This document shows positions 49,506-64,000 of a DNA stretch of 64,000 bases, piece after piece (position 1 is the first letter of the stretch; the number at the start of each line of letters is the position of its first letter). The notes under the pieces were generated by a model. The model was not told the DNA's origin and made no database searches. It was given only the letters and a program-made list of their open reading frames with translations. The DNA is from Escherichia phage ESCO13. Position numbers and translations under genes: made by a program. The stretch is from the sequence record NC_047770.1; one strand, given 5' to 3'.

Positions 49506-50966
49506 GTGCCAAAAATAGTCACTTGGGAACAATATAAAACAGATATAAAACAAGCTTATCAAGGTAAGTCTTGGATTGTTGTAGATTATATTGAGCCGTG
49601 GAACGGCAATAAAACTAAACTTAGATGCATCTGTGCTCTGCATGGAGAATGGAAAACAACAAGCATAAATACCGCTAAACTAGGGAGGGGTTGTCCAGAA
49701 TGCGGTAGGGAGATTATAAGTAAAGCAGTATCTATAAACAAATCAAAAACCTGGGAGCAATATAAAGAAGAAGTGCAAACCACTTACAATCAGGCAGGTA
49801 AGTTTTGGACTGTTACAGGATGGCACGGAGAATGGAAAGGATGGAATACTAAACTGGTTTGTTGTTGTGCTTTACATGGGGAGTGGAGGTCTACTTCTAT
49901 ATCTTCTGCGAAAAACGGGAGTGGATGCAGGAAGTGTATGGGAGAAGCAAACAGAGAAAGAACATCGATTGCATGGGAGAAACATAAAGAAGAAGTAGAA
50001 GAAGCTTATAAAGAAAAACCCTGGATTGTTAGAGGCTATGTGGAACCGTGGAACGGTTCCCGCACTAAGTTGATTTGTGAGTGTAAGGTTCATGGTCAAT
50101 GGTGCACTACCACTGTAAACAGTGCTAAACAAGGGACTGGATGCTACAGTTGTCAAAGAGAAATGACGAAACAAAGGAATACAATGGAGGATAAACAACA
50201 TGTTGAAGATTTTATAAAAGCTTGTCCTGATAATGTAGAGCGTAAATATTATCGTAGCGATAGAGTAGATAGATTAGGTCGTCAGGTTTACTGGATTGTA
50301 GAATGTCCTATATGTGCAGAGGATGATTATTGTAAAGAAGGCTTATGCGATAATAAATTTGAGATGAAGATGAGTCATTTGAAAAGGGGTGGCCTTCCTT
50401 GCCGTTGTTCTAAATATTATCATTACACTCCTGAACAATGGGCCTACCGTATGACCAAAGCTTGCCAGGAACGAGGGGATCAATTTATAGGATTCATTGA
50501 TAAGGTAAGCAATAACAGCAAGTTTAAATATCTATGTAGGGAGCATGGAGAGCAAACGATCACACCTACCGATTATCTCAATGGGAAAGGTTGTCCAGGC
50601 TGTAAGAACAGAAATATGCAAGAATTTTACATCAATATTATTCTTGATGAGTACGGAGAAGACACGGGAGCTTACAAGTTGGGGATTGCAAAGGACAGTG
50701 ATATCAGGATCAAAGGGCAGAATGCAAACAACAATTACTCTATGCGCCGTATAGCATTGTTCGATCTGCCGTCCTACCAAGCTTGCAGGGCGTTAGAGAG
50801 TAAGCTAAAGTCTAAGACTGATCAGATTCTACCGTCTATTGGCTGTGTAGAACGCTTGCACATGAAAGATGGTCATAGTGAAACCTTCCTGCGCGAGGAT
50901 TTGGCTATCGTCTTAAGTGCTATCAACCAAGCAGGTGGAATAATGAGAGAGGAGGAAACATGTTAG
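49506..50966 (+). CDS. protein with tandem zinc-ribbon repeats and a C-terminal GIY-YIG/T5orf172-like domain
   Basis: 486 aa; GTG start after RBS GGGGGAGG; at least three ~48-aa repeats of the pattern W(T/I)V.G(Y/W).EPWNG..TKL.C.C..HGEW..T(S/T)(I/V)..AK.G.GC..C; C-terminal YKLGIAKDSDIRIKGQ resembles the T5orf172/GIY-YIG core. Confidence 0.6.
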   Translation: MPKIVTWEQYKTDIKQAYQGKSWIVVDYIEPWNGNKTKLRCICALHGEWKTTSINTAKLGRGCPECGREIISKAVSINKSKTWEQYKEEVQTTYNQAGKFWTVTGWHGEWKGWNTKLVCCCALHGEWRSTSISSAKNGSGCRKCMGEANRERTSIAWEKHKEEVEEAYKEKPWIVRGYVEPWNGSRTKLICECKVHGQWCTTTVNSAKQGTGCYSCQREMTKQRNTMEDKQHVEDFIKACPDNVERKYYRSDRVDRLGRQVYWIVECPICAEDDYCKEGLCDNKFEMKMSHLKRGGLPCRCSKYYHYTPEQWAYRMTKACQERGDQFIGFIDKVSNNSKFKYLCREHGEQTITPTDYLNGKGCPGCKNRNMQEFYINIILDEYGEDTGAYKLGIAKDSDIRIKGQNANNNYSMRRIALFDLPSYQACRALESKLKSKTDQILPSIGCVERLHMKDGHSETFLREDLAIVLSAINQAGGIMREEETC

Positions 50967-51325
50967 TTGACGTTCAAATTATGCGCAACGAAAGAATGGA
51001 CTTCTTTGAAGCAGTAGAGAAACATCTGATCAGATGGGACTATGAATTTGTTCCTGCTGGATGTGGACCAGTAGAGCATTTAGCGGAAGACGACGATGTA
51101 TACATGATCATTCGTCAAGTGTACCAGACAGACCAGTGTGAAGAAACTCCCGAACTGATTTTGTTTGAGTGTAAAGATCTTGCAAAATATTTTGACTATG
51201 GCGGAAAAGAGGGTCATAATCTCTCCAGATACAATAAACGTCTACTTATCTTAGACTACATGCGGAACAACAAACACAAACTCATCGACGCAGACGCAGT
51301 TTATGGCTACTGGTGGATGGACTAA
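50960..51325 (+). CDS. hypothetical protein
   Basis: 121 aa; RBS GAGGAGG. Confidence 0.5.
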   Translation: MLVDVQIMRNERMDFFEAVEKHLIRWDYEFVPAGCGPVEHLAEDDDVYMIIRQVYQTDQCEETPELILFECKDLAKYFDYGGKEGHNLSRYNKRLLILDYMRNNKHKLIDADAVYGYWWMD

Positions 51326-51338
51326 CAAAGGAGAAACT

Positions 51339-51518
51339 ATGGCACGTTTAGCAGATCATGAAATCTTTAAACCTATTCTGAACCACTATGATGAACTTAA
51401 AGCAGTGTTGGATTGTTATAGAGAGGATGAAGAACGTTTGGAAGTCAATCTTAAGATAGTTCTGATGAAAGCTTTTCAAGACGGGCAAGCTAAAGTTTTA
51501 GAAGGCATGAAAAAATGA
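51339..51518 (+). CDS. hypothetical protein
   Basis: Start at MARLADHE after RBS AAAGGAG. Confidence 0.45.
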   Translation: MARLADHEIFKPILNHYDELKAVLDCYREDEERLEVNLKIVLMKAFQDGQAKVLEGMKK

Positions 51519-52057
51519 GAATAACTGATGAATATGTATTCTTCTTTTCACATAAAGATGTGTTTAGTAATTGGTATATTGCACCCTTTACAGAAACTGA
51601 ACCAGGTTACAATGAGACTTTCTGTTGTGTTGAGCAATATATGATGTGGCGTAAGGCTTTGCTGTTCAAGGATCATGCGATTGCAGCAGCTATCCTTGAT
51701 CACTCAACTATACGTGACAACGAGAGGAAACAAGCATACTACAAACGTATGGGTCGAGCGGTATCTGGTTTTAATAATGATATGTGGGAAGAGAACCGTG
51801 AGCGTATTGTTATGCGAGGCTTATGCTTGAAATATGTACAGAATCCAGATTTGTATGCAGACTTACACCTTTACCAATACAAAACGTTTGTTGAAGCAAG
51901 TCCTTACGATAAGGTTTACGGTATTGGAATGGGAATGTATGAACCAGGGGTGCTAAACCCTGCTACCTGGAAAGGGCAGAATCTTTTAGGAAAATATCAT
52001 AATAAACTGATCGAAATACTTTTCCCAGACAAAATACCGCAAAGACGATATTTGTGA
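51515..52057 (+). CDS. NADAR/YbiA-like (DUF1768) domain protein
   Basis: 180 aa; FFFSHKDVFSNWY ... CVEQYMMWRKALLF ... YGIGMG pattern characteristic of the NADAR family. Confidence 0.65.
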   Translation: MRITDEYVFFFSHKDVFSNWYIAPFTETEPGYNETFCCVEQYMMWRKALLFKDHAIAAAILDHSTIRDNERKQAYYKRMGRAVSGFNNDMWEENRERIVMRGLCLKYVQNPDLYADLHLYQYKTFVEASPYDKVYGIGMGMYEPGVLNPATWKGQNLLGKYHNKLIEILFPDKIPQRRYL

Positions 52058-52113
52058 TATTTTAACTTTTTTCATTTTTAGAACAAAGGTGTCACTTTGT
52101 AGCACAGAAATAA

Positions 52114-52148
52114 GGCTCCTACAGCACCGTAGAGAGCCTGTTATTTTG
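52114..52148 (+). terminator. rho-independent terminator ending the plus-strand block
   Basis: GGCTCCTAC-AGCACC-GTAGAGAGCC followed by TGTTATTTTGT. Confidence 0.5.
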
Positions 52149-52296
52149 TCCTATACAAACCCTTGTCTTTTTCAGTTTGCATCACTAGGATTCGATCTGA
52201 GTGGGTTCCTGAAGGTTTACCAATAAGATTAAAGGTTATATCAAATTCCCACTACCTATTATCTCAAAAATCCCTCAAATTATTTAAACTTTTTAA

Positions 52297-52480
52297 GAAT
52301 TTACAAAAGTGAAAGTTGAAAACCAAAATTTAAAGTTTAGGAAAATTATCTTAAAATGTCAGATACAAAACAAAACTCAAAAGTCAAGGAAAATTTTAAA
52401 AATTTTGCGCGCCCACAGTATTTAAAGTTTTTTTGCTTTTACAAAAATGAAAGTACAAAAGCAAAATTTAAAGTTTACAA
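52297..52480. repeat. AT-rich iteron-like repeat zone
   Basis: About seven copies of (G/T)AAAGT(T/C/A) with A-tracts; two ~40-bp imperfect direct repeats (TACAAAAGTGAAAGTTGAAAACCAAAATTTAAAGTTTAG and TACAAAAATGAAAGTACAAAAGCAAAATTTAAAGTTTAC). Confidence 0.45.
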
Positions 52481-52497
52481 AAATTTTTATGCAGGTG

Positions 52498-52606
52498 AGA
52501 ATGAGAAGAGTTCTCATATGGAAATGCAAATGATAATGATTCGCATTTAAGTTTATAAATGAGATTGATTCTTATTTAATAAGGTAAATGATAATCATTC
52601 TCATTT
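52498..52606. promoter_or_regulatory. array of four phased 21-bp Fur-box-like palindromes
   Basis: Boxes start at 52498, 52528, 52557, 52586 (29-30 bp period): gAATGAgAagagTTCTCATat, AAATGATAATGATTCGCATTT, AAATGAGATTGATTCTTATTT, AAATGATAATCATTCTCATTT; the last contains AATGATAATCATT, the core of the Fur consensus GATAATGATAATCATTATC. Confidence 0.45.
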
Positions 52607-52865
52607 AGAGAATGACGCGCAGGGGCGGTGTTTGTCTCGCGCTCCCGTGTCCCCTCGCCATGTAATAAGAATAACAGATCCAGCCAGGAAAGCAAGCGAT
52701 TATTTTATCTTTACATTTCTTTACAAATATAGAGCGCCCAGCCTACCGGCGATCAACCTTCCAACCAGTGCCCCCTGGTATGTTAGCCCCGCCTTTACGC
52801 CGTGGGGTGGCGCTTCCTCTTCTGTATGTAAAACAGTATAAGCCCGATCCCTGGGCTTGTCAAGA

Positions 52866-53132
52866 TTATTTTTTGTTTTCTTGCCAGGATAGGACACCTA
52901 ACCAAAAATACATATCGCCCCGCGCCCCTGGTGGTATCTTGCTTTCCCCGCCGCCACTGCAAGCCCATAGATAACCATTTGCGAACGTATCAAAATGATC
53001 TATCTCTTCCACCTTATGATCGCCCAGGTTGAGAACGGTTTCAACCTTTAAGCCCGTTGCGCTTGCTACCTGGTGCACCGTGCCGCCTTGCCAGCCCAAT
53101 GAGTGCATAAGGTGTAATGTAGTATTTGTCAT
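52866..53132 (-). CDS. hypothetical protein in the GC-richer island
   Basis: 88 aa; preceded on the minus strand by its own promoter, 5-prime hairpin and RBS. Confidence 0.5.
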   Translation of the reverse strand: MTNTTLHLMHSLGWQGGTVHQVASATGLKVETVLNLGDHKVEEIDHFDTFANGYLWACSGGGESKIPPGARGDMYFWLGVLSWQENKK

Positions 53133-53154
53133 GGTATCGCCCTTTCTTTGATGT

Positions 53155-53207
53155 GCGCCCTGGTTGGCGCGGTAGAAAGATGATAGCCCTTTCTTTTATA
53201 TATAGCA
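53155..53207 (-). promoter_or_regulatory. minus-strand promoter TTGCTA-N17-TATCAT plus 5-prime hairpin
   Basis: -35 at 53207-53202, -10 at 53184-53179, hairpin GCGCC-AACCAG-GGCGC (53170-53155), then RBS AAAGGG and ATG at 53132; divergent from the first plus-strand cassette. Confidence 0.45.
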
Positions 53208-53241
53208 AGCAAAAAGAAAATAAAAAAGATTGAAAAAGTGA

Positions 53242-53299
53242 TTGACGTTCGCCAGGTGGCGGCATAATATTTACCACGTAGGGCGGCAATGGTGCCGCT
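53242..53299 (+). promoter_or_regulatory. promoter-hairpin cassette 1
   Basis: TTGACG-N17-TAATAT-TTACCACG-TAGGGCGGCAATGGTGCCGCT. Confidence 0.6.
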
Positions 53300-53319
53300 C
53301 ATTATTTGGAGTTAAAATC

Positions 53320-53517
53320 ATGGCAACATTGCACATTGTGGCGAAAGCTGGACAAATAAACGTGGTAGTAAACGGTTTTACTGAGTTCAGTCATCCCCAG
53401 GATGATCATGAAACGGTTTTATCTTTCATTGATTCACTGTTAGAAATGGGAGTAATTACAGAAGACCAGCACGGTACAAAATGCAAGCGCGTTAATCAAA
53501 TTGCAGGAATAGAATAA
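53320..53517 (+). CDS. small hypothetical protein
   Basis: 65 aa MATLHIVAKAGQ...; ATG after RBS GGAG, not the upstream TTG of the track ORF. Confidence 0.55.
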   Translation: MATLHIVAKAGQINVVVNGFTEFSHPQDDHETVLSFIDSLLEMGVITEDQHGTKCKRVNQIAGIE

Positions 53518-53523
53518 AAACTA

Positions 53524-53582
53524 TTGACAACAAACAACAACCTGATAAGATGTATCACATAGGGCGGGAAGTGGTTTCCCGC
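53524..53582 (+). promoter_or_regulatory. promoter-hairpin cassette 2
   Basis: TTGACA-N16-TAAGAT-GTATCACA-TAGGGCGGGAAGTGGTTTCCCGC. Confidence 0.6.
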
Positions 53583-53607
53583 TCGTAACAGAAGAGAGAT
53601 TATCATC

Positions 53608-53880
53608 ATGGCATCATATAGCGCAACAATGATCGTAGCTGGCACAACTGGTAAACCTATGAGCGGTGGCGGATCTTTCGCTAATATCAATATTGACGGG
53701 CGTTTATCCCTGGACGCAGCGATCGCTATTGCACGGGAAACATTTAAGAAAGAATGTAATTTCAACAAGCAAGATTATCTCGGTTTCGCTATTGAAAAAA
53801 CCGCGCGCTTTGTTGATTATAAAAGCCCGAAAATGGTTGATACTACACTAAAAGCGCAAGATGTAGCGTTTTTGCTTTAA
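53608..53880 (+). CDS. small hypothetical protein
   Basis: 90 aa; RBS AGAAGAGAG. Confidence 0.55.
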   Translation: MASYSATMIVAGTTGKPMSGGGSFANINIDGRLSLDAAIAIARETFKKECNFNKQDYLGFAIEKTARFVDYKSPKMVDTTLKAQDVAFLL

Positions 53881-53883
53881 GGC

Positions 53884-53939
53884 TTGACATTAACGAATAA
53901 TTTGTTAATATGTTACATAAAGCGGGAATAGTTCCCGCT
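53884..53939 (+). promoter_or_regulatory. promoter-hairpin cassette 3
   Basis: TTGACA-N16-TAATAT-GTTACATA-AAGCGGGAATAGTTCCCGCT. Confidence 0.6.
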
Positions 53940-53956
53940 ATTTGTAAGGTGGTAGA

Positions 53957-54214
53957 ATGTTTTACATCAAATTAAAAGGTCACGTGATCGCGTTCAAAGA
54001 TAACGCTTTTTACAGATTAGCAAAATATGCGTTAATACATCCCCACTATGTTTATATAAGGAGGCGTGATGAAATAAATATCTTTGATCAAACAACATGC
54101 GAGAACATCGAGATCCGCAAGGTTGGCGTACGTGATTATCGTACATCTTTCTACCCTTGCAAGGATTCAGCAAGTCTTTTTAAAGTATGCCAATTGTTGA
54201 AAAAAGGTGGTTAA
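53957..54214 (+). CDS. small hypothetical protein
   Basis: 85 aa; RBS AAGGTGG. Confidence 0.55.
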   Translation: MFYIKLKGHVIAFKDNAFYRLAKYALIHPHYVYIRRRDEINIFDQTTCENIEIRKVGVRDYRTSFYPCKDSASLFKVCQLLKKGG

Positions 54215-54215
54215 T

Positions 54216-54773
54216 ATGGGCCGCGAATATGTGATCCAGTCTTGGGTAAAACATGAAGCAGATGATCCGCGCATCATTCCCGATCATCTTATCGATGAAT
54301 CCACGGGATATAGCGGTGAGCAAATAGGTAACAGATTAGCACGTAGTAACGGCAACGTAAAAGCGCGTTATGTGCGCCCTGGCTGGCTGGCAAATGGTAA
54401 CGCTGATTTATCCAGTGCGGAAGATGCGAGCGACGGCGCGAAAGATAATCCTTTGTACAAAGTTGATCCGGCTTTTCGTGTCCTGGATGAATACCCCAGC
54501 AAGATAGCGGCGCTCGATCAGGCCCTGGAAAGTAAGCGCATCACCTGGACCGCTTACAACATGGCAAAAAACGTACTTGATGGTAAATTGATTCAAGCTG
54601 AAAGAAAATTAGCCAAAATTGCAGCCATAGCCCAGGAGGAAGACGAGGAGACAACGGAAGAGGAAGAGTACGAAGAGATCCCGCCGTTGTTGTGTGTTGA
54701 TGCTTTTCCTGATTATCAGCCGACAGAGGAAGAAAAAAGGATCGCACTAGAAAACTTTGAAAATAGTCTTTGA
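54216..54773 (+). CDS. hypothetical protein with acidic C-terminal region
   Basis: 185 aa from the ATG at 54216 (RBS AAAGGTGG); second cistron of cassette 3; EEDEETTEEEEYEE stretch. Confidence 0.55.
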   Translation: MGREYVIQSWVKHEADDPRIIPDHLIDESTGYSGEQIGNRLARSNGNVKARYVRPGWLANGNADLSSAEDASDGAKDNPLYKVDPAFRVLDEYPSKIAALDQALESKRITWTAYNMAKNVLDGKLIQAERKLAKIAAIAQEEDEETTEEEEYEEIPPLLCVDAFPDYQPTEEEKRIALENFENSL

Positions 54774-54827
54774 CATATCGCCGCCACTGGCATAATATTT
54801 ACCACGTAGGGCGGCAATGGTGCCGCT
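54770..54827 (+). promoter_or_regulatory. promoter-hairpin cassette 4
   Basis: TTGACA (overlapping the upstream stop)-N17-TAATAT-TTACCACG-TAGGGCGGCAATGGTGCCGCT; near-identical to cassette 1. Confidence 0.6.
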
Positions 54828-54855
54828 CATAGTGAAATTATGCAAGAGGCTTACA

Positions 54856-54951
54856 ATGATTAATAAAGAAAATAGCTTGACGGTTGGAACGATTAACGCT
54901 ATCATTCTAGCCGTTCCATTTTGGATTGTAGTAGCGGCTATTATTTTCTAA
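54856..54951 (+). CDS. hydrophobic micro-protein (31 aa)
   Basis: MINKENSLTVGTINAIILAVPFWIVVAAIIF; RBS AGAGG 6 nt upstream. Confidence 0.4.
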   Translation: MINKENSLTVGTINAIILAVPFWIVVAAIIF

Positions 54952-54959
54952 AAATATTC

Positions 54960-55020
54960 TTGACAACGTTTTTTAATCTGATAAGATGTATCACATAGGG
55001 CGGCGGAATACTTCCCCGCC
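54960..55020 (+). promoter_or_regulatory. promoter-hairpin cassette 5
   Basis: TTGACA-N16-TAAGAT-GTATCACA-TAGGGCGGCGGAATACTTCCCCGCC. Confidence 0.6.
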
Positions 55021-62664: not shown

Positions 62665-62683
62665 CTGATTTAGGAGTCATATC

Positions 62684-62917
62684 ATGATCGAACAAATTAA
62701 AAGCACTACACCAAATGTTAACGGTAATGTTTCTCACTTTATCGGGGATAATGAAAGAGGTACACCGTACGCCGCCGTAACCGTTCAACCTAACGGGGAT
62801 TATTGGTTTACCGTGTACGGATCTTACTCTTTTGGACGTTCGGCACATGATAAGATCTTGCAAGTGGTTAAGCCTACTGGGAAGAATATCACAGCAGAAA
62901 AATTTTATAAAAAATAA
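62684..62917 (+). CDS. small hypothetical protein
   Basis: 77 aa; RBS AGGAG. Confidence 0.55.
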   Translation: MIEQIKSTTPNVNGNVSHFIGDNERGTPYAAVTVQPNGDYWFTVYGSYSFGRSAHDKILQVVKPTGKNITAEKFYKK

Positions 62918-62918
62918 C

Positions 62919-62978
62919 TTGCTTTATAGCTCCTGTTAACTTATAGTTATTGCGTAGGGCGAGCAATACAGCAAGCCC
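62919..62978 (+). promoter_or_regulatory. promoter-hairpin cassette 25 (degenerate)
   Basis: TTGCTT-N17-TATAGT-TATTGCG-TAGGGCGAGCAATACAGCAAGCCC. Confidence 0.45.
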
Positions 62979-62995
62979 ACAAAGAGGAAAATAAA

Positions 62996-63364
62996 ATGAG
63001 CAAATCAGCAATTAAAGCACTTGAAAAAGCACAAGAAGTGATCGCAACGTCAACCACTGGCGCAAAGGTTAATCTCGTTGGTTATCTGACAGATGAAACT
63101 ATCCGTAAAAATTGGCGTAATGCTGATTTACTGGCTTGCTTATTGATTAATAGTGTCGCTAATGCTTTCCAGTGTGAAACAGCCGAGAGCCTGGAGGAAA
63201 ACTTGTTTGATAATATGGATCAAGCCATTGAAACCTATATTCAATCAAATTTAGATAGCTGGAACAGTAAAACATGGCCCGACAATTTACGCGATACAAC
63301 TGATCAACTGATCCGCCTTGCCCTGATGGTTGAACGCGATAACGTTCACAACCGCACAAAGTAA
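62996..63364 (+). CDS. hypothetical protein
   Basis: 122 aa; RBS AAGAGGAAA. Confidence 0.55.
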   Translation: MSKSAIKALEKAQEVIATSTTGAKVNLVGYLTDETIRKNWRNADLLACLLINSVANAFQCETAESLEENLFDNMDQAIETYIQSNLDSWNSKTWPDNLRDTTDQLIRLALMVERDNVHNRTK

Positions 63365-63375
63365 GATTATACAAG

Positions 63376-63395
63376 GGGCGCACTAAGCGCCCTTT
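63376..63395 (+). terminator. hairpin / weak terminator
   Basis: GGGCGC-ACTAA-GCGCCC followed by a short TTT; same hairpin family as 58304 and 63940. Confidence 0.4.
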
Positions 63396-63422
63396 AACGT
63401 AAAGAAATGTAAATAATGCGCT

Positions 63423-63459
63423 ATCCCCTATTGACAGGGGATCGGCGTTATATTATATT
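63423..63459 (+). promoter_or_regulatory. sigma70 promoter TTGACA-N17-TATATT with an inverted repeat over the -35
   Basis: ATCCCCT-ATTGAC-AGGGGAT (63423-63442) flanks the -35; no 5-prime hairpin. Confidence 0.5.
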
Positions 63460-63504
63460 TAACTCACTGGCAGCAAACAACGAAACGAAACAAAGGATAA
63501 CACT

Positions 63505-63924
63505 ATGAACATTAAATCAAATAATCCAGCTTACTCCTTCGATAACGCTTTTTGTCACGGTAGCGCCGCCAAAGGCTTCGAAATCGATGGTAAATTGGTT
63601 ATCGTGAACGTTGACGGGGAAGAGGTTGCAGTGTATCCGGTAAACGATGTTAAAAGCCGTTTACAATGCCGCATGGATGTTACCGCATATCAGCTTGATC
63701 CGGTCCGTGTAGTTGCCCTGGTGTTAGAGGAAGAGATCAAAGCAATGCATCACAGTAATAAGTTTATTGGTGACGCGCAGGATAATATGAACGTTTGCCG
63801 CCATAAAGTTAATGAAGCATTGAAAGAATGCGGTTTTAAGGATCTGATGATTAAACGTGATGAAAAATTCCGCTTTCGTAATGACCTGGCAAACCGGATC
63901 TACTCAATCTATGAAGCGTTATAA
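63505..63924 (+). CDS. hypothetical protein
   Basis: 139 aa; RBS AAAGGA. Confidence 0.55.
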   Translation: MNIKSNNPAYSFDNAFCHGSAAKGFEIDGKLVIVNVDGEEVAVYPVNDVKSRLQCRMDVTAYQLDPVRVVALVLEEEIKAMHHSNKFIGDAQDNMNVCRHKVNEALKECGFKDLMIKRDEKFRFRNDLANRIYSIYEAL

Positions 63925-63939
63925 TTGACAACAAAACAA

Positions 63940-63965
63940 GGGCGCACCAAGCGCCCTTTCTTTTT
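63940..63965 (+). terminator. rho-independent terminator
   Basis: GGGCGC-ACCAA-GCGCCC followed by TTTCTTTTT; near-identical to the terminator at 58304. Confidence 0.6.
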
Positions 63966-64000
63966 GCCCGAACAATGTTGATAGCTTTCGCCTATGAAAA

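Follow-up and report, generated by a model that had tools for sequence, protein, structure and literature searches.

The window analysed here is a stretch of 64,000 nucleotides from Escherichia phage ESCO13 (NC_047770.1). It is 98–99% identical to phAPEC8-like genomes of the genus Phapecoctavirus (Stephanstirmvirinae), among them UP17, ukendt and phAPEC8 itself, and is part of a Phapecoctavirus, a phAPEC8-like myovirus of about 152 kb. A gene for a NADAR-domain protein (51515–52057) is followed by a gap devoid of coding sequences. When the sequence was read on its own, this gap was taken for a 500-bp non-coding stretch. It is indeed CDS-free but larger, with 808 bp (52058–52865) up to a minus-strand ORF and 1.26 kb up to the next plus-strand gene, which starts at about 53321 and has its own promoter. 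To the right of the gap lie dozens of small early-type genes, each equipped with a repeated promoter-plus-hairpin module. In this module, which precedes many of the small early genes, a sigma-70-type promoter is followed by a GC hairpin immediately before the ribosome-binding site. One module is located at 53204–53333, and copies are found at about 54727, 55437, 56821, 58112, 58847, 59716, 61290 and 62630; in relatives, the promoter part is annotated as such and the hairpin part as a terminator. Ten neighbouring ORFs were scanned with Pfam and PHROG, which returned an AAA ATPase, a CapR/HNH endonuclease, the NADAR protein and ORFans, and no gene for an initiator, a helicase loader or a primase adjoining the repeat zone described below. 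The endonuclease, a protein of 486 aa with five CapR-homology stretches (PF21817; phrog_681, phrog_559), is encoded at 49506–50966, three genes upstream of the gap. It is missing at the equivalent position in phiWec190 and shorter in several relatives, and looks like a mobile homing-endonuclease polymorphism. An Rfam scan of 51000–55000 at E ≤ 1 matched no family, and there are no tRNAs within the 64-kb window.

The gap contains a zone of striking composition. The segment 52276–52490 has 78.6% A+T and includes the AT-richest 200 bp of the window. The same holds for the composite whole genome of about 152 kb, assembled from UP17 and the window, where the zone reaches 78% against a mean of 60.8% (sd 3.9), the runner-up being at 76%; the AT-rich character first proposed for this place is thus confirmed. 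About seven copies of (G/T)AAAGT(T/C/A) had been proposed as well. Between 52297 and 52480 there are seven AAAGT cores, five of which (52311, 52331, 52423, 52449 and 52469) match the strict motif, and cores and strict matches are all on the plus strand. By chance one would expect 0.13 strict matches and 0.31 cores, or 0.70 after correction for local composition (P ~9e-6), and every other 184-bp segment has at most three strict matches. Six of the seven cores fall within the two copies of a longer direct repeat and are a by-product of its duplication, so they do not represent seven independent iterons. This repeat, previously described as two imperfect copies of about 40 bp, does exist in two copies, but each is 72 nt long and a degenerate unit lies between them. 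The modules M1 (52276–52347) and M2 (52414–52485), both on the plus strand, are 82% identical and 138 bp apart; blastn aligns 67 nt of them at 83.6% identity (E = 3.5e-14), and the autocorrelation at lag 138 has a z of 6.8, a value matched by none of 2000 null sequences. M1 carries ATTTAAACTTT at 52282, TTTACAAAAGTGAAAGT at 52300 and ATTTAAAGTTT at 52328, and M2, the best-conserved part of the zone, carries ATTTAAAGTTT at 52420 and 52466. The 34-nt middle unit (52364–52397, plus strand) shares 74% identity with the 3' halves of both modules. Four of the five genomic copies of the 11-mer ATTTAAASTTT are in the zone, at 52282, 52328, 52420 and 52466, with spacings of 46, 92 and 46 bp; the 46-bp sub-register within the repeats is weak (z = 2.1).

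The 16- and 17-mers of the zone and TATTTAAASTTTTT are found nowhere else. A dispersed promoter motif was rejected on this ground, the modules themselves being equally confined to the zone, and the T4-type late motif TATAAATA is not enriched. The A-tracts had been called phased, which did not hold up: spectral power is lacking at 10–10.5 bp, and such peaks as there are, at 7 and 11.5 bp, are weak (global p ~0.05). A hairpin or cruciform was discarded as well, as folding of the zone as ssDNA gives z ~0 on either strand. A 64-aa ORF at 52356–52550 is not considered as coding, since indels break it in the phiWec phages and it overlaps the Fur-like boxes presented below. The zone sequence has no match among 5,426 E. 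coli genomes and one match of chance level only in PLSDB; without a homologue in E. coli genomes or plasmids, a host or plasmid source was rejected. One record, that of ETEC-TG (OR786310.1, annotated as circular), has its position 1 at about 52229 of the window, 47 bp before M1. It is the sole record found that opens inside the gap, and its start there probably reflects where the assembly happened to break, in AT-rich DNA of low complexity.

On its left, the zone is separated from the NADAR-domain gene by the Rho-independent terminator of this gene (52113–52147, plus strand), which consists of a hairpin at 52113–52139 followed by GUUAUUUUG. It folds with z = -3.8 on the plus strand and -3.2 on the minus strand, where it also has a U-rich tail, and it is annotated as a terminator in phage ASO2A. 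The spacer between terminator and repeats (52141–52275) is poorly conserved (53–58% identity to the phiWec phages). On its right, the zone ends 12–15 bp before an array of four Fur-like palindromic 19-mers (52500–52518, 52529–52547, 52558–52576 and 52587–52605) with a period of 29 bp, so that the array abuts M2; its placement directly upstream of these boxes was correctly recognized in the sequence-only reading. The array is followed by a GC-rich hairpin with a downstream UCAUUCUCU on the minus strand (52658–52617, z = -2.9), which looks like a terminator for leftward transcription. At the equivalent place a hairpin with a U-rich tail, built from different sequences, is present in T5-like, GAP31 and rV5 loci. 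As hairpin terminators converge from both sides, we infer that the repeat zone and the four Fur-like boxes form an island of about 470 bp (52140–52612) that is shielded from transcription on either side, the left terminator and the right hairpin being its boundaries.

Beyond the island lies a GC-rich element (52611–52865, minus strand) that is 96–97% identical to the phiWec phages, compared with only 70–93% for the genes adjoining it, and conserved blocks of which extend into the Vequintavirinae. It has its own sigma-70-type promoter on the minus strand (52863–52835, TTGACA-17-TATACT), which is conserved and aimed at the hairpin and the Fur-like array. Variants of this promoter, such as TTGCAA-17-TATATT and TTGACG-17-CATAAT, are present in 14 other loci. 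No conserved ORF was found in the element, it matches no Rfam family, and a search for a consensus RNA structure yielded no more than 1 to 5 compensatory pairs. Either an RNA of about 215 nt or a DNA element may be encoded in it. Next to it, an 88-aa ORF (52866–53132, phrog_19316), the sole minus-strand gene here, converges on the gap. The encoded protein gave a confident 5-helix model that matches no solved structure, and no recognizable DNA-binding fold appeared in the search with this model; one hint is a 24-residue profile match to 8vd6 'CAP REPEAT' (E = 8e-4). From its sequence pattern it was suspected to be a helix-turn-helix protein that binds the repeats. This candidate was dropped, since the repeats are specific to each lineage and its N-terminus is conserved without varying along with them.

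Comparison with the phiWec phages indicates that the modules are conserved beyond their surroundings. Identity is 78–82% for M1 and 81–85% for M2 versus 53–58% for the left flank and 61–64% for the spacer between the modules, and the M1–M2 spacing is 138–139 bp in all four genomes compared. Justusliebigvirus alia (NC_052655) has this module family in three copies (TTATTTAAAGTTTTT ... AAAATGAAAAGTTCAA) with spacings of 64 and 78 bp, for which the annotation gives no more than repeat_region. Three repeats unrelated in sequence and rich in GATC (CTCGATCGnTTTTTC ... GATCGTATTTTTTCT) occupy the equivalent position in rV5, GAP31 and Kashira; the homologous stretch is drawn as a 'non-coding' box in the genome map of rV5 (PMC3606486). 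Eleven IMG/VR contigs with the GC-rich core were collected, ten of which have enough upstream sequence to be examined. All ten have the repeats, spaced 63–78 bp with the outer copies 141–143 bp apart, and nine of them have one to four Fur-like boxes (L031 has none). The same layout of three direct repeats over about 140 bp, a Fur-like array and a conserved GC-rich element thus recurs in Justusliebigvirus and in the Vequintavirinae, where three full repeats fill the span equivalent to M1, middle unit and M2, and the outer repeats are 138–143 bp apart in every lineage. In the 330 bp upstream of the Fur-like boxes, the Vequintavirinae-type loci (L013, L014, L015 and L022–L032) have 4–7 GATC sites in their repeats for about 1.3 expected, and the Phapecoctavirus zone has none. 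The analogous arrays of the Vequintavirinae have an AT content of 0.51–0.68 and are not AT-rich. Since geometry, Fur-like boxes and GC-rich element are shared but the repeat sequence is specific to each lineage, the repeats are probably read by a co-evolving protein encoded by the phage rather than by a host protein. The boxes are probably read by the host Fur or by a conserved factor.

The distribution of the Fur-like boxes is informative with regard to the genome ends. Searching the genome of about 152 kb with the 19-mer AATGAKAATNATTMTCATT and up to 3 mismatches located them in its two large non-coding gaps exclusively, four next to the zone and three in the gap with the direct terminal repeat (DTR). 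Of the latter, one is at 64172–64190, and two are immediately after the end of the window, within the DTR of relatives. Apart from these boxes the two gaps share no sequence, and the idea of a general likeness between them was abandoned. The same pattern of two clusters exists in rV5-like LL12, with its first box 9 bp inside the DTR, and in Justusliebigvirus alia. The DTR was placed by means of Schickermooser, whose record has an identical 329-bp sequence at both ends, in agreement with a published terminal repeat of 328 bp (PMC6563267). The flank of its right end aligns to 62683–64000 of the window, so that the DTR falls immediately outside the window on its right, about 12.4 kb from M2. In UP17 the zone and the DTR are 12.6 kb apart, and in Schickermooser itself 13.8 kb. 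In LL12, where PhageTerm assigned the DTR to 104,966–105,424 (PMC6658697), it is 11.4 kb from the homologous gap, and alia and phiWec190 have a second large gap 11–13 kb downstream. The DTR is 329–459 bp long and the zone is present in a single copy.

Homology of the boxes also extends to another group of phages. Fur-like arrays homologous to 52500–52605 occur in Stephanstirmvirinae, in Vequintavirinae and in T5-like phages. With blastn, the array hits the left terminal repeat of many T5-like genomes at about 9.3–9.7 kb (E = 5e-12 to 7e-4), and a stretch of 28 nt is identical in DT57C. The T5-like locus comprises, in the same orientation, nine TGTCGGATTTGCACA repeats, Fur-like palindromes, DnaA boxes, a GC hairpin with one Fur-like box, and converging ORFs. 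It corresponds to Repeat Region 3 of Davison, a candidate for the injection stop signal (iss) (10.1101/866236); neither Fur nor iron is mentioned in this preprint. Its palindromes palE–palJ have the form of Fur boxes (2340–2560 and 2860–2930 in the T5-like poul124, L012) and share 28 identical nt with the array at 52523–52550 of the window. Both regions are untranslated with converging transcription units, that of T5 being over 1 kb long. In both, a direct-repeat array stands beside an array of homologous palindromes, a GC hairpin and a further Fur-like box are on the terminus side, and the elements have the same order relative to the nearest genome end, at about 8% of the genome from that end. 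The two regions also differ. The nine TGTCGGATTTGCACA repeats of T5 have no sequence relationship to the modules and are not rich in A+T. DnaA boxes are present as pairs in T5 (IRD'/IRC'), whereas TTWTNCACA is absent from 52140–52500 and from the orthologues. The T5 region belongs to a terminal repeat of about 10 kb and is thus present twice, unlike the single-copy site described here with its 329-bp DTR, and the neighbouring early genes are opposite in orientation.

Taken together, the conservation of the modules, the recurring architecture and the position between convergent terminators are good support for regarding the zone as a cis-acting site under selection, namely a sequence-specific protein-binding array of duplex DNA and not coding sequence, to which we attribute a probability of roughly 0.8. 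The element is unannotated or unnamed in public records and is kin to known non-coding repeat arrays of phages, namely iteron origins and T5 Repeat Region 3. In the literature that we found, no replication origin has been identified in Stephanstirmvirinae or Vequintavirinae and no function assigned to their largest non-coding regions. No paper retrieved links these phages to Fur, an origin or this repeat region, and the records and papers searched contain no function or comparison for the homologous stretch, nor any link to T5 or Fur. For a specialist, the architecture shared across families and the fact that Fur-like boxes are confined to the DTR and the zone site would be the unexpected features. 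As to the role of the site, a replication origin or an origin-activating site is the single most likely one in our estimate, although this assignment is a guess that is less likely than not to be right.

Several other roles have to be weighed against an origin. Packaging, in the sense of a pac site or a terminal-repeat-associated site, was among the functions initially suggested. In T5-like phages the analogous direct repeats do straddle the inner boundary of the long terminal repeat, and the circular ETEC-TG record happens to open inside the gap. However, the 329-bp DTR mapped with Schickermooser is about 12.4 kb away, that of LL12 determined by PhageTerm is 11.4 kb from the homologous gap (PMC6658697), and the other genome records start at arbitrary places. 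The zone is therefore disfavoured as a terminus or pac site, and such a function appears very improbable. The proposal of a platform for a host nucleoid protein did not gain any positive support either. H-NS prefers AT-rich DNA, and the AT-richest segment of the genome could be a sink for non-specific binding of H-NS type through AT-richness or curvature. Against this, the A-tracts lack helical phasing, the H-NS high-affinity motif and the IHF and Fis consensus sequences are absent from the zone and its orthologues, and what is conserved are specific 11-mers and a module spacing, while the arrays of the Vequintavirinae are not AT-rich at all. We regard this role as improbable. More deserving of attention, if still rather doubtful, is a regulatory platform. 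Through UP-like AT-rich DNA, or through sites for a phage regulator, the zone would activate or silence from upstream a promoter at the array that is controlled by iron or Fur. Fur boxes normally overlap the promoters that they regulate. Promoter-like sites are numerous in 51900–53400 (14, for 4.0 ± 2.0 expected), and one of them, TTTACA-17-GAGAAT at 52474–52502, sits at the junction of M2 and the array with its -10 hexamer overlapping the first Fur-like box and AT-rich DNA immediately upstream. The phiWec phages keep TTTACG-16-GAGAAT, and the phage encodes an iron-dependent ribonucleotide reductase. Nevertheless, all promoter-like matches in the zone are weak sigma-70 matches (9/12), and no hexamers between the last repeat and the first box are conserved across subfamilies. 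There is also no plus-strand gene to be served: the next 650 bp are taken up by the GC-rich element and by an antisense ORF, and the first plus-strand gene has a promoter of its own. Finally, the island is flanked by convergent terminators and its modules are confined to the zone, unlike dispersed promoter motifs.

The analogy with T5 suggests another role, namely a DNA-entry or end-linked site that would be the counterpart of Repeat Region 3. The zone may then be where a right-terminal segment of about 12 kb, rich in small early genes, has its inner boundary. This segment would be the first to enter the cell or to be handled, and proteins bound to the repeats and to the Fur-like boxes, which are also in the DTR, may hold, pause or bridge the DNA. 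From the terminus inwards, the order of early genes, GC hairpin with a Fur-like box, Fur-like array, direct repeats and remaining genome is common to this phage and to T5-like phages. The palindrome arrays are homologous (E = 5e-12 to 5e-6, with the 28 identical nt in DT57C), and Fur-like boxes are restricted to the zone site and the DTR gap in this phage, LL12 and alia; both observations are in line with such a function. So is the position of the site in four lineages, about 11–14 kb from the DTR or about 8–9% of the genome, when compared with the 7.9% of the first-step-transfer segment of T5. Within the myoviruses, however, the shared distance is a consequence of synteny and does not count as separate support. 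No report of two-step transfer exists for these myoviruses, and no experiment has addressed which motif of T5 serves as the stop signal (PMC10644984). The pairs of DnaA boxes that are central according to Davison are absent from 52140–52500, the terminal repeat has 329–459 bp and not about 10 kb, and the early genes point towards the terminus, whereas they point away from it in the T5-like record. Such a role thus remains a minority possibility. A bolder version, speculative and unlikely to be right, is that phAPEC8-like and rV5-like myoviruses have a T5-like 'first-entering' segment, a right-terminal block of small early genes of about 11–14 kb between the two Fur-like clusters, with the zone and the adjoining array as a site for pausing or gating DNA entry or for bridging the ends, functionally homologous to the T5 signal and bound by Fur or by a phage mimic of its specificity. 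If true, the palindromes and direct repeats of Repeat Region 3, and not its DnaA boxes, would be the T5 stop signal. There is also some chance, though a minor one, that the zone has a role not considered here.

We return to the origin or origin-activating site, which is favoured because it jointly explains the AT-richness, the iteron-like lineage specificity of the repeats, the insulation of the island and the adjacent array of host-factor type. According to this proposal, the repeats would act as iterons and the bound Fur-like array would be an architectural host-factor element. As the AT-richest 200 bp of the genome, the zone would be its easiest-melting DNA, and the duplex would open there for a replisome with a T7-type primase-helicase and PolA. 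The type of replisome is assumed from rV5, for which PolA and a gp4-like primase-helicase were reported (PMC3606486), and not from the replication genes of the present phage. The conserved leftward promoter at 52863–52835 may assist through transcriptional activation. Origin-like hallmarks differ with the lineage, with extreme AT-richness here, GATC clusters in the repeats of the Vequintavirinae and DnaA-box pairs in the collinear T5 region. The latter is held not to be the origin of T5, which electron microscopy put near the genome centre (10.1101/866236).

Comparison with well-known origins gives a mixed picture. The iterons of this phage would be two 72-nt modules and a degenerate unit. Iteron origins such as lambda ori, P1 oriR and pSC101 have four to seven units of 17–22 bp. 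As in these origins, direct repeats are found here beside the most AT-rich DNA and a palindrome array of host-factor type, and the repeats have a lineage-specific sequence, as they would if they co-evolved with a dedicated binding protein. Unlike in these origins, the repeats are long and few (72 nt, two or three copies) and not helically spaced, no Rep, O or other initiator gene is present in cis, and the palindromes are Fur-like instead of initiator sites. No consensus for DnaA, IHF, Fis, CRP or the H-NS motif occurs in the zone or in three orthologues. The origins of T7 (phi1.1A/B) and T4 (oriF/oriG) consist of a promoter plus AT-rich DNA. Similarly, the strong conserved minus-strand promoter at 52863–52835 is aimed at the AT-rich stretch of the zone, but it is about 350 bp off, and the terminator-like hairpin 52658–52617 and the Fur-like array are located in between. 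Other observations speak against an origin. The analogous arrays of the Vequintavirinae are not AT-rich, and DNA unwinding is therefore not a conserved property of the site. The plus-strand GC skew is +0.17 to +0.25 on the left of the zone and +0.02 to +0.12 on its right, the opposite of the signature of a simple bidirectional origin, although transcription dominates the skew in this genome; for rV5, skew analysis had been tried in search of the origin, without success. Convergent transcription would load positive supercoils onto the island and oppose the opening of the duplex, and no initiator, helicase-loader or primase gene adjoins the zone.

Whatever its exact role, this conserved, insulated and lineage-specific sequence with its constant geometry is the best candidate for a master cis-acting element in these phages. 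The coliphage groups concerned, Stephanstirmvirinae and Vequintavirinae, are relevant for therapy, and even if the site is an ordinary origin it is still useful for their engineering and annotation. It also ties these myoviruses to the "injection stop" region of T5, whose repeats and DnaA boxes were described in 1987 and which has gone unexplained ever since. The Fur-box form of the T5 palindromes, absent from the T5 literature that we examined, gives a testable factor, namely Fur and the iron status, and three independent groups of phages are available for dissecting the element.
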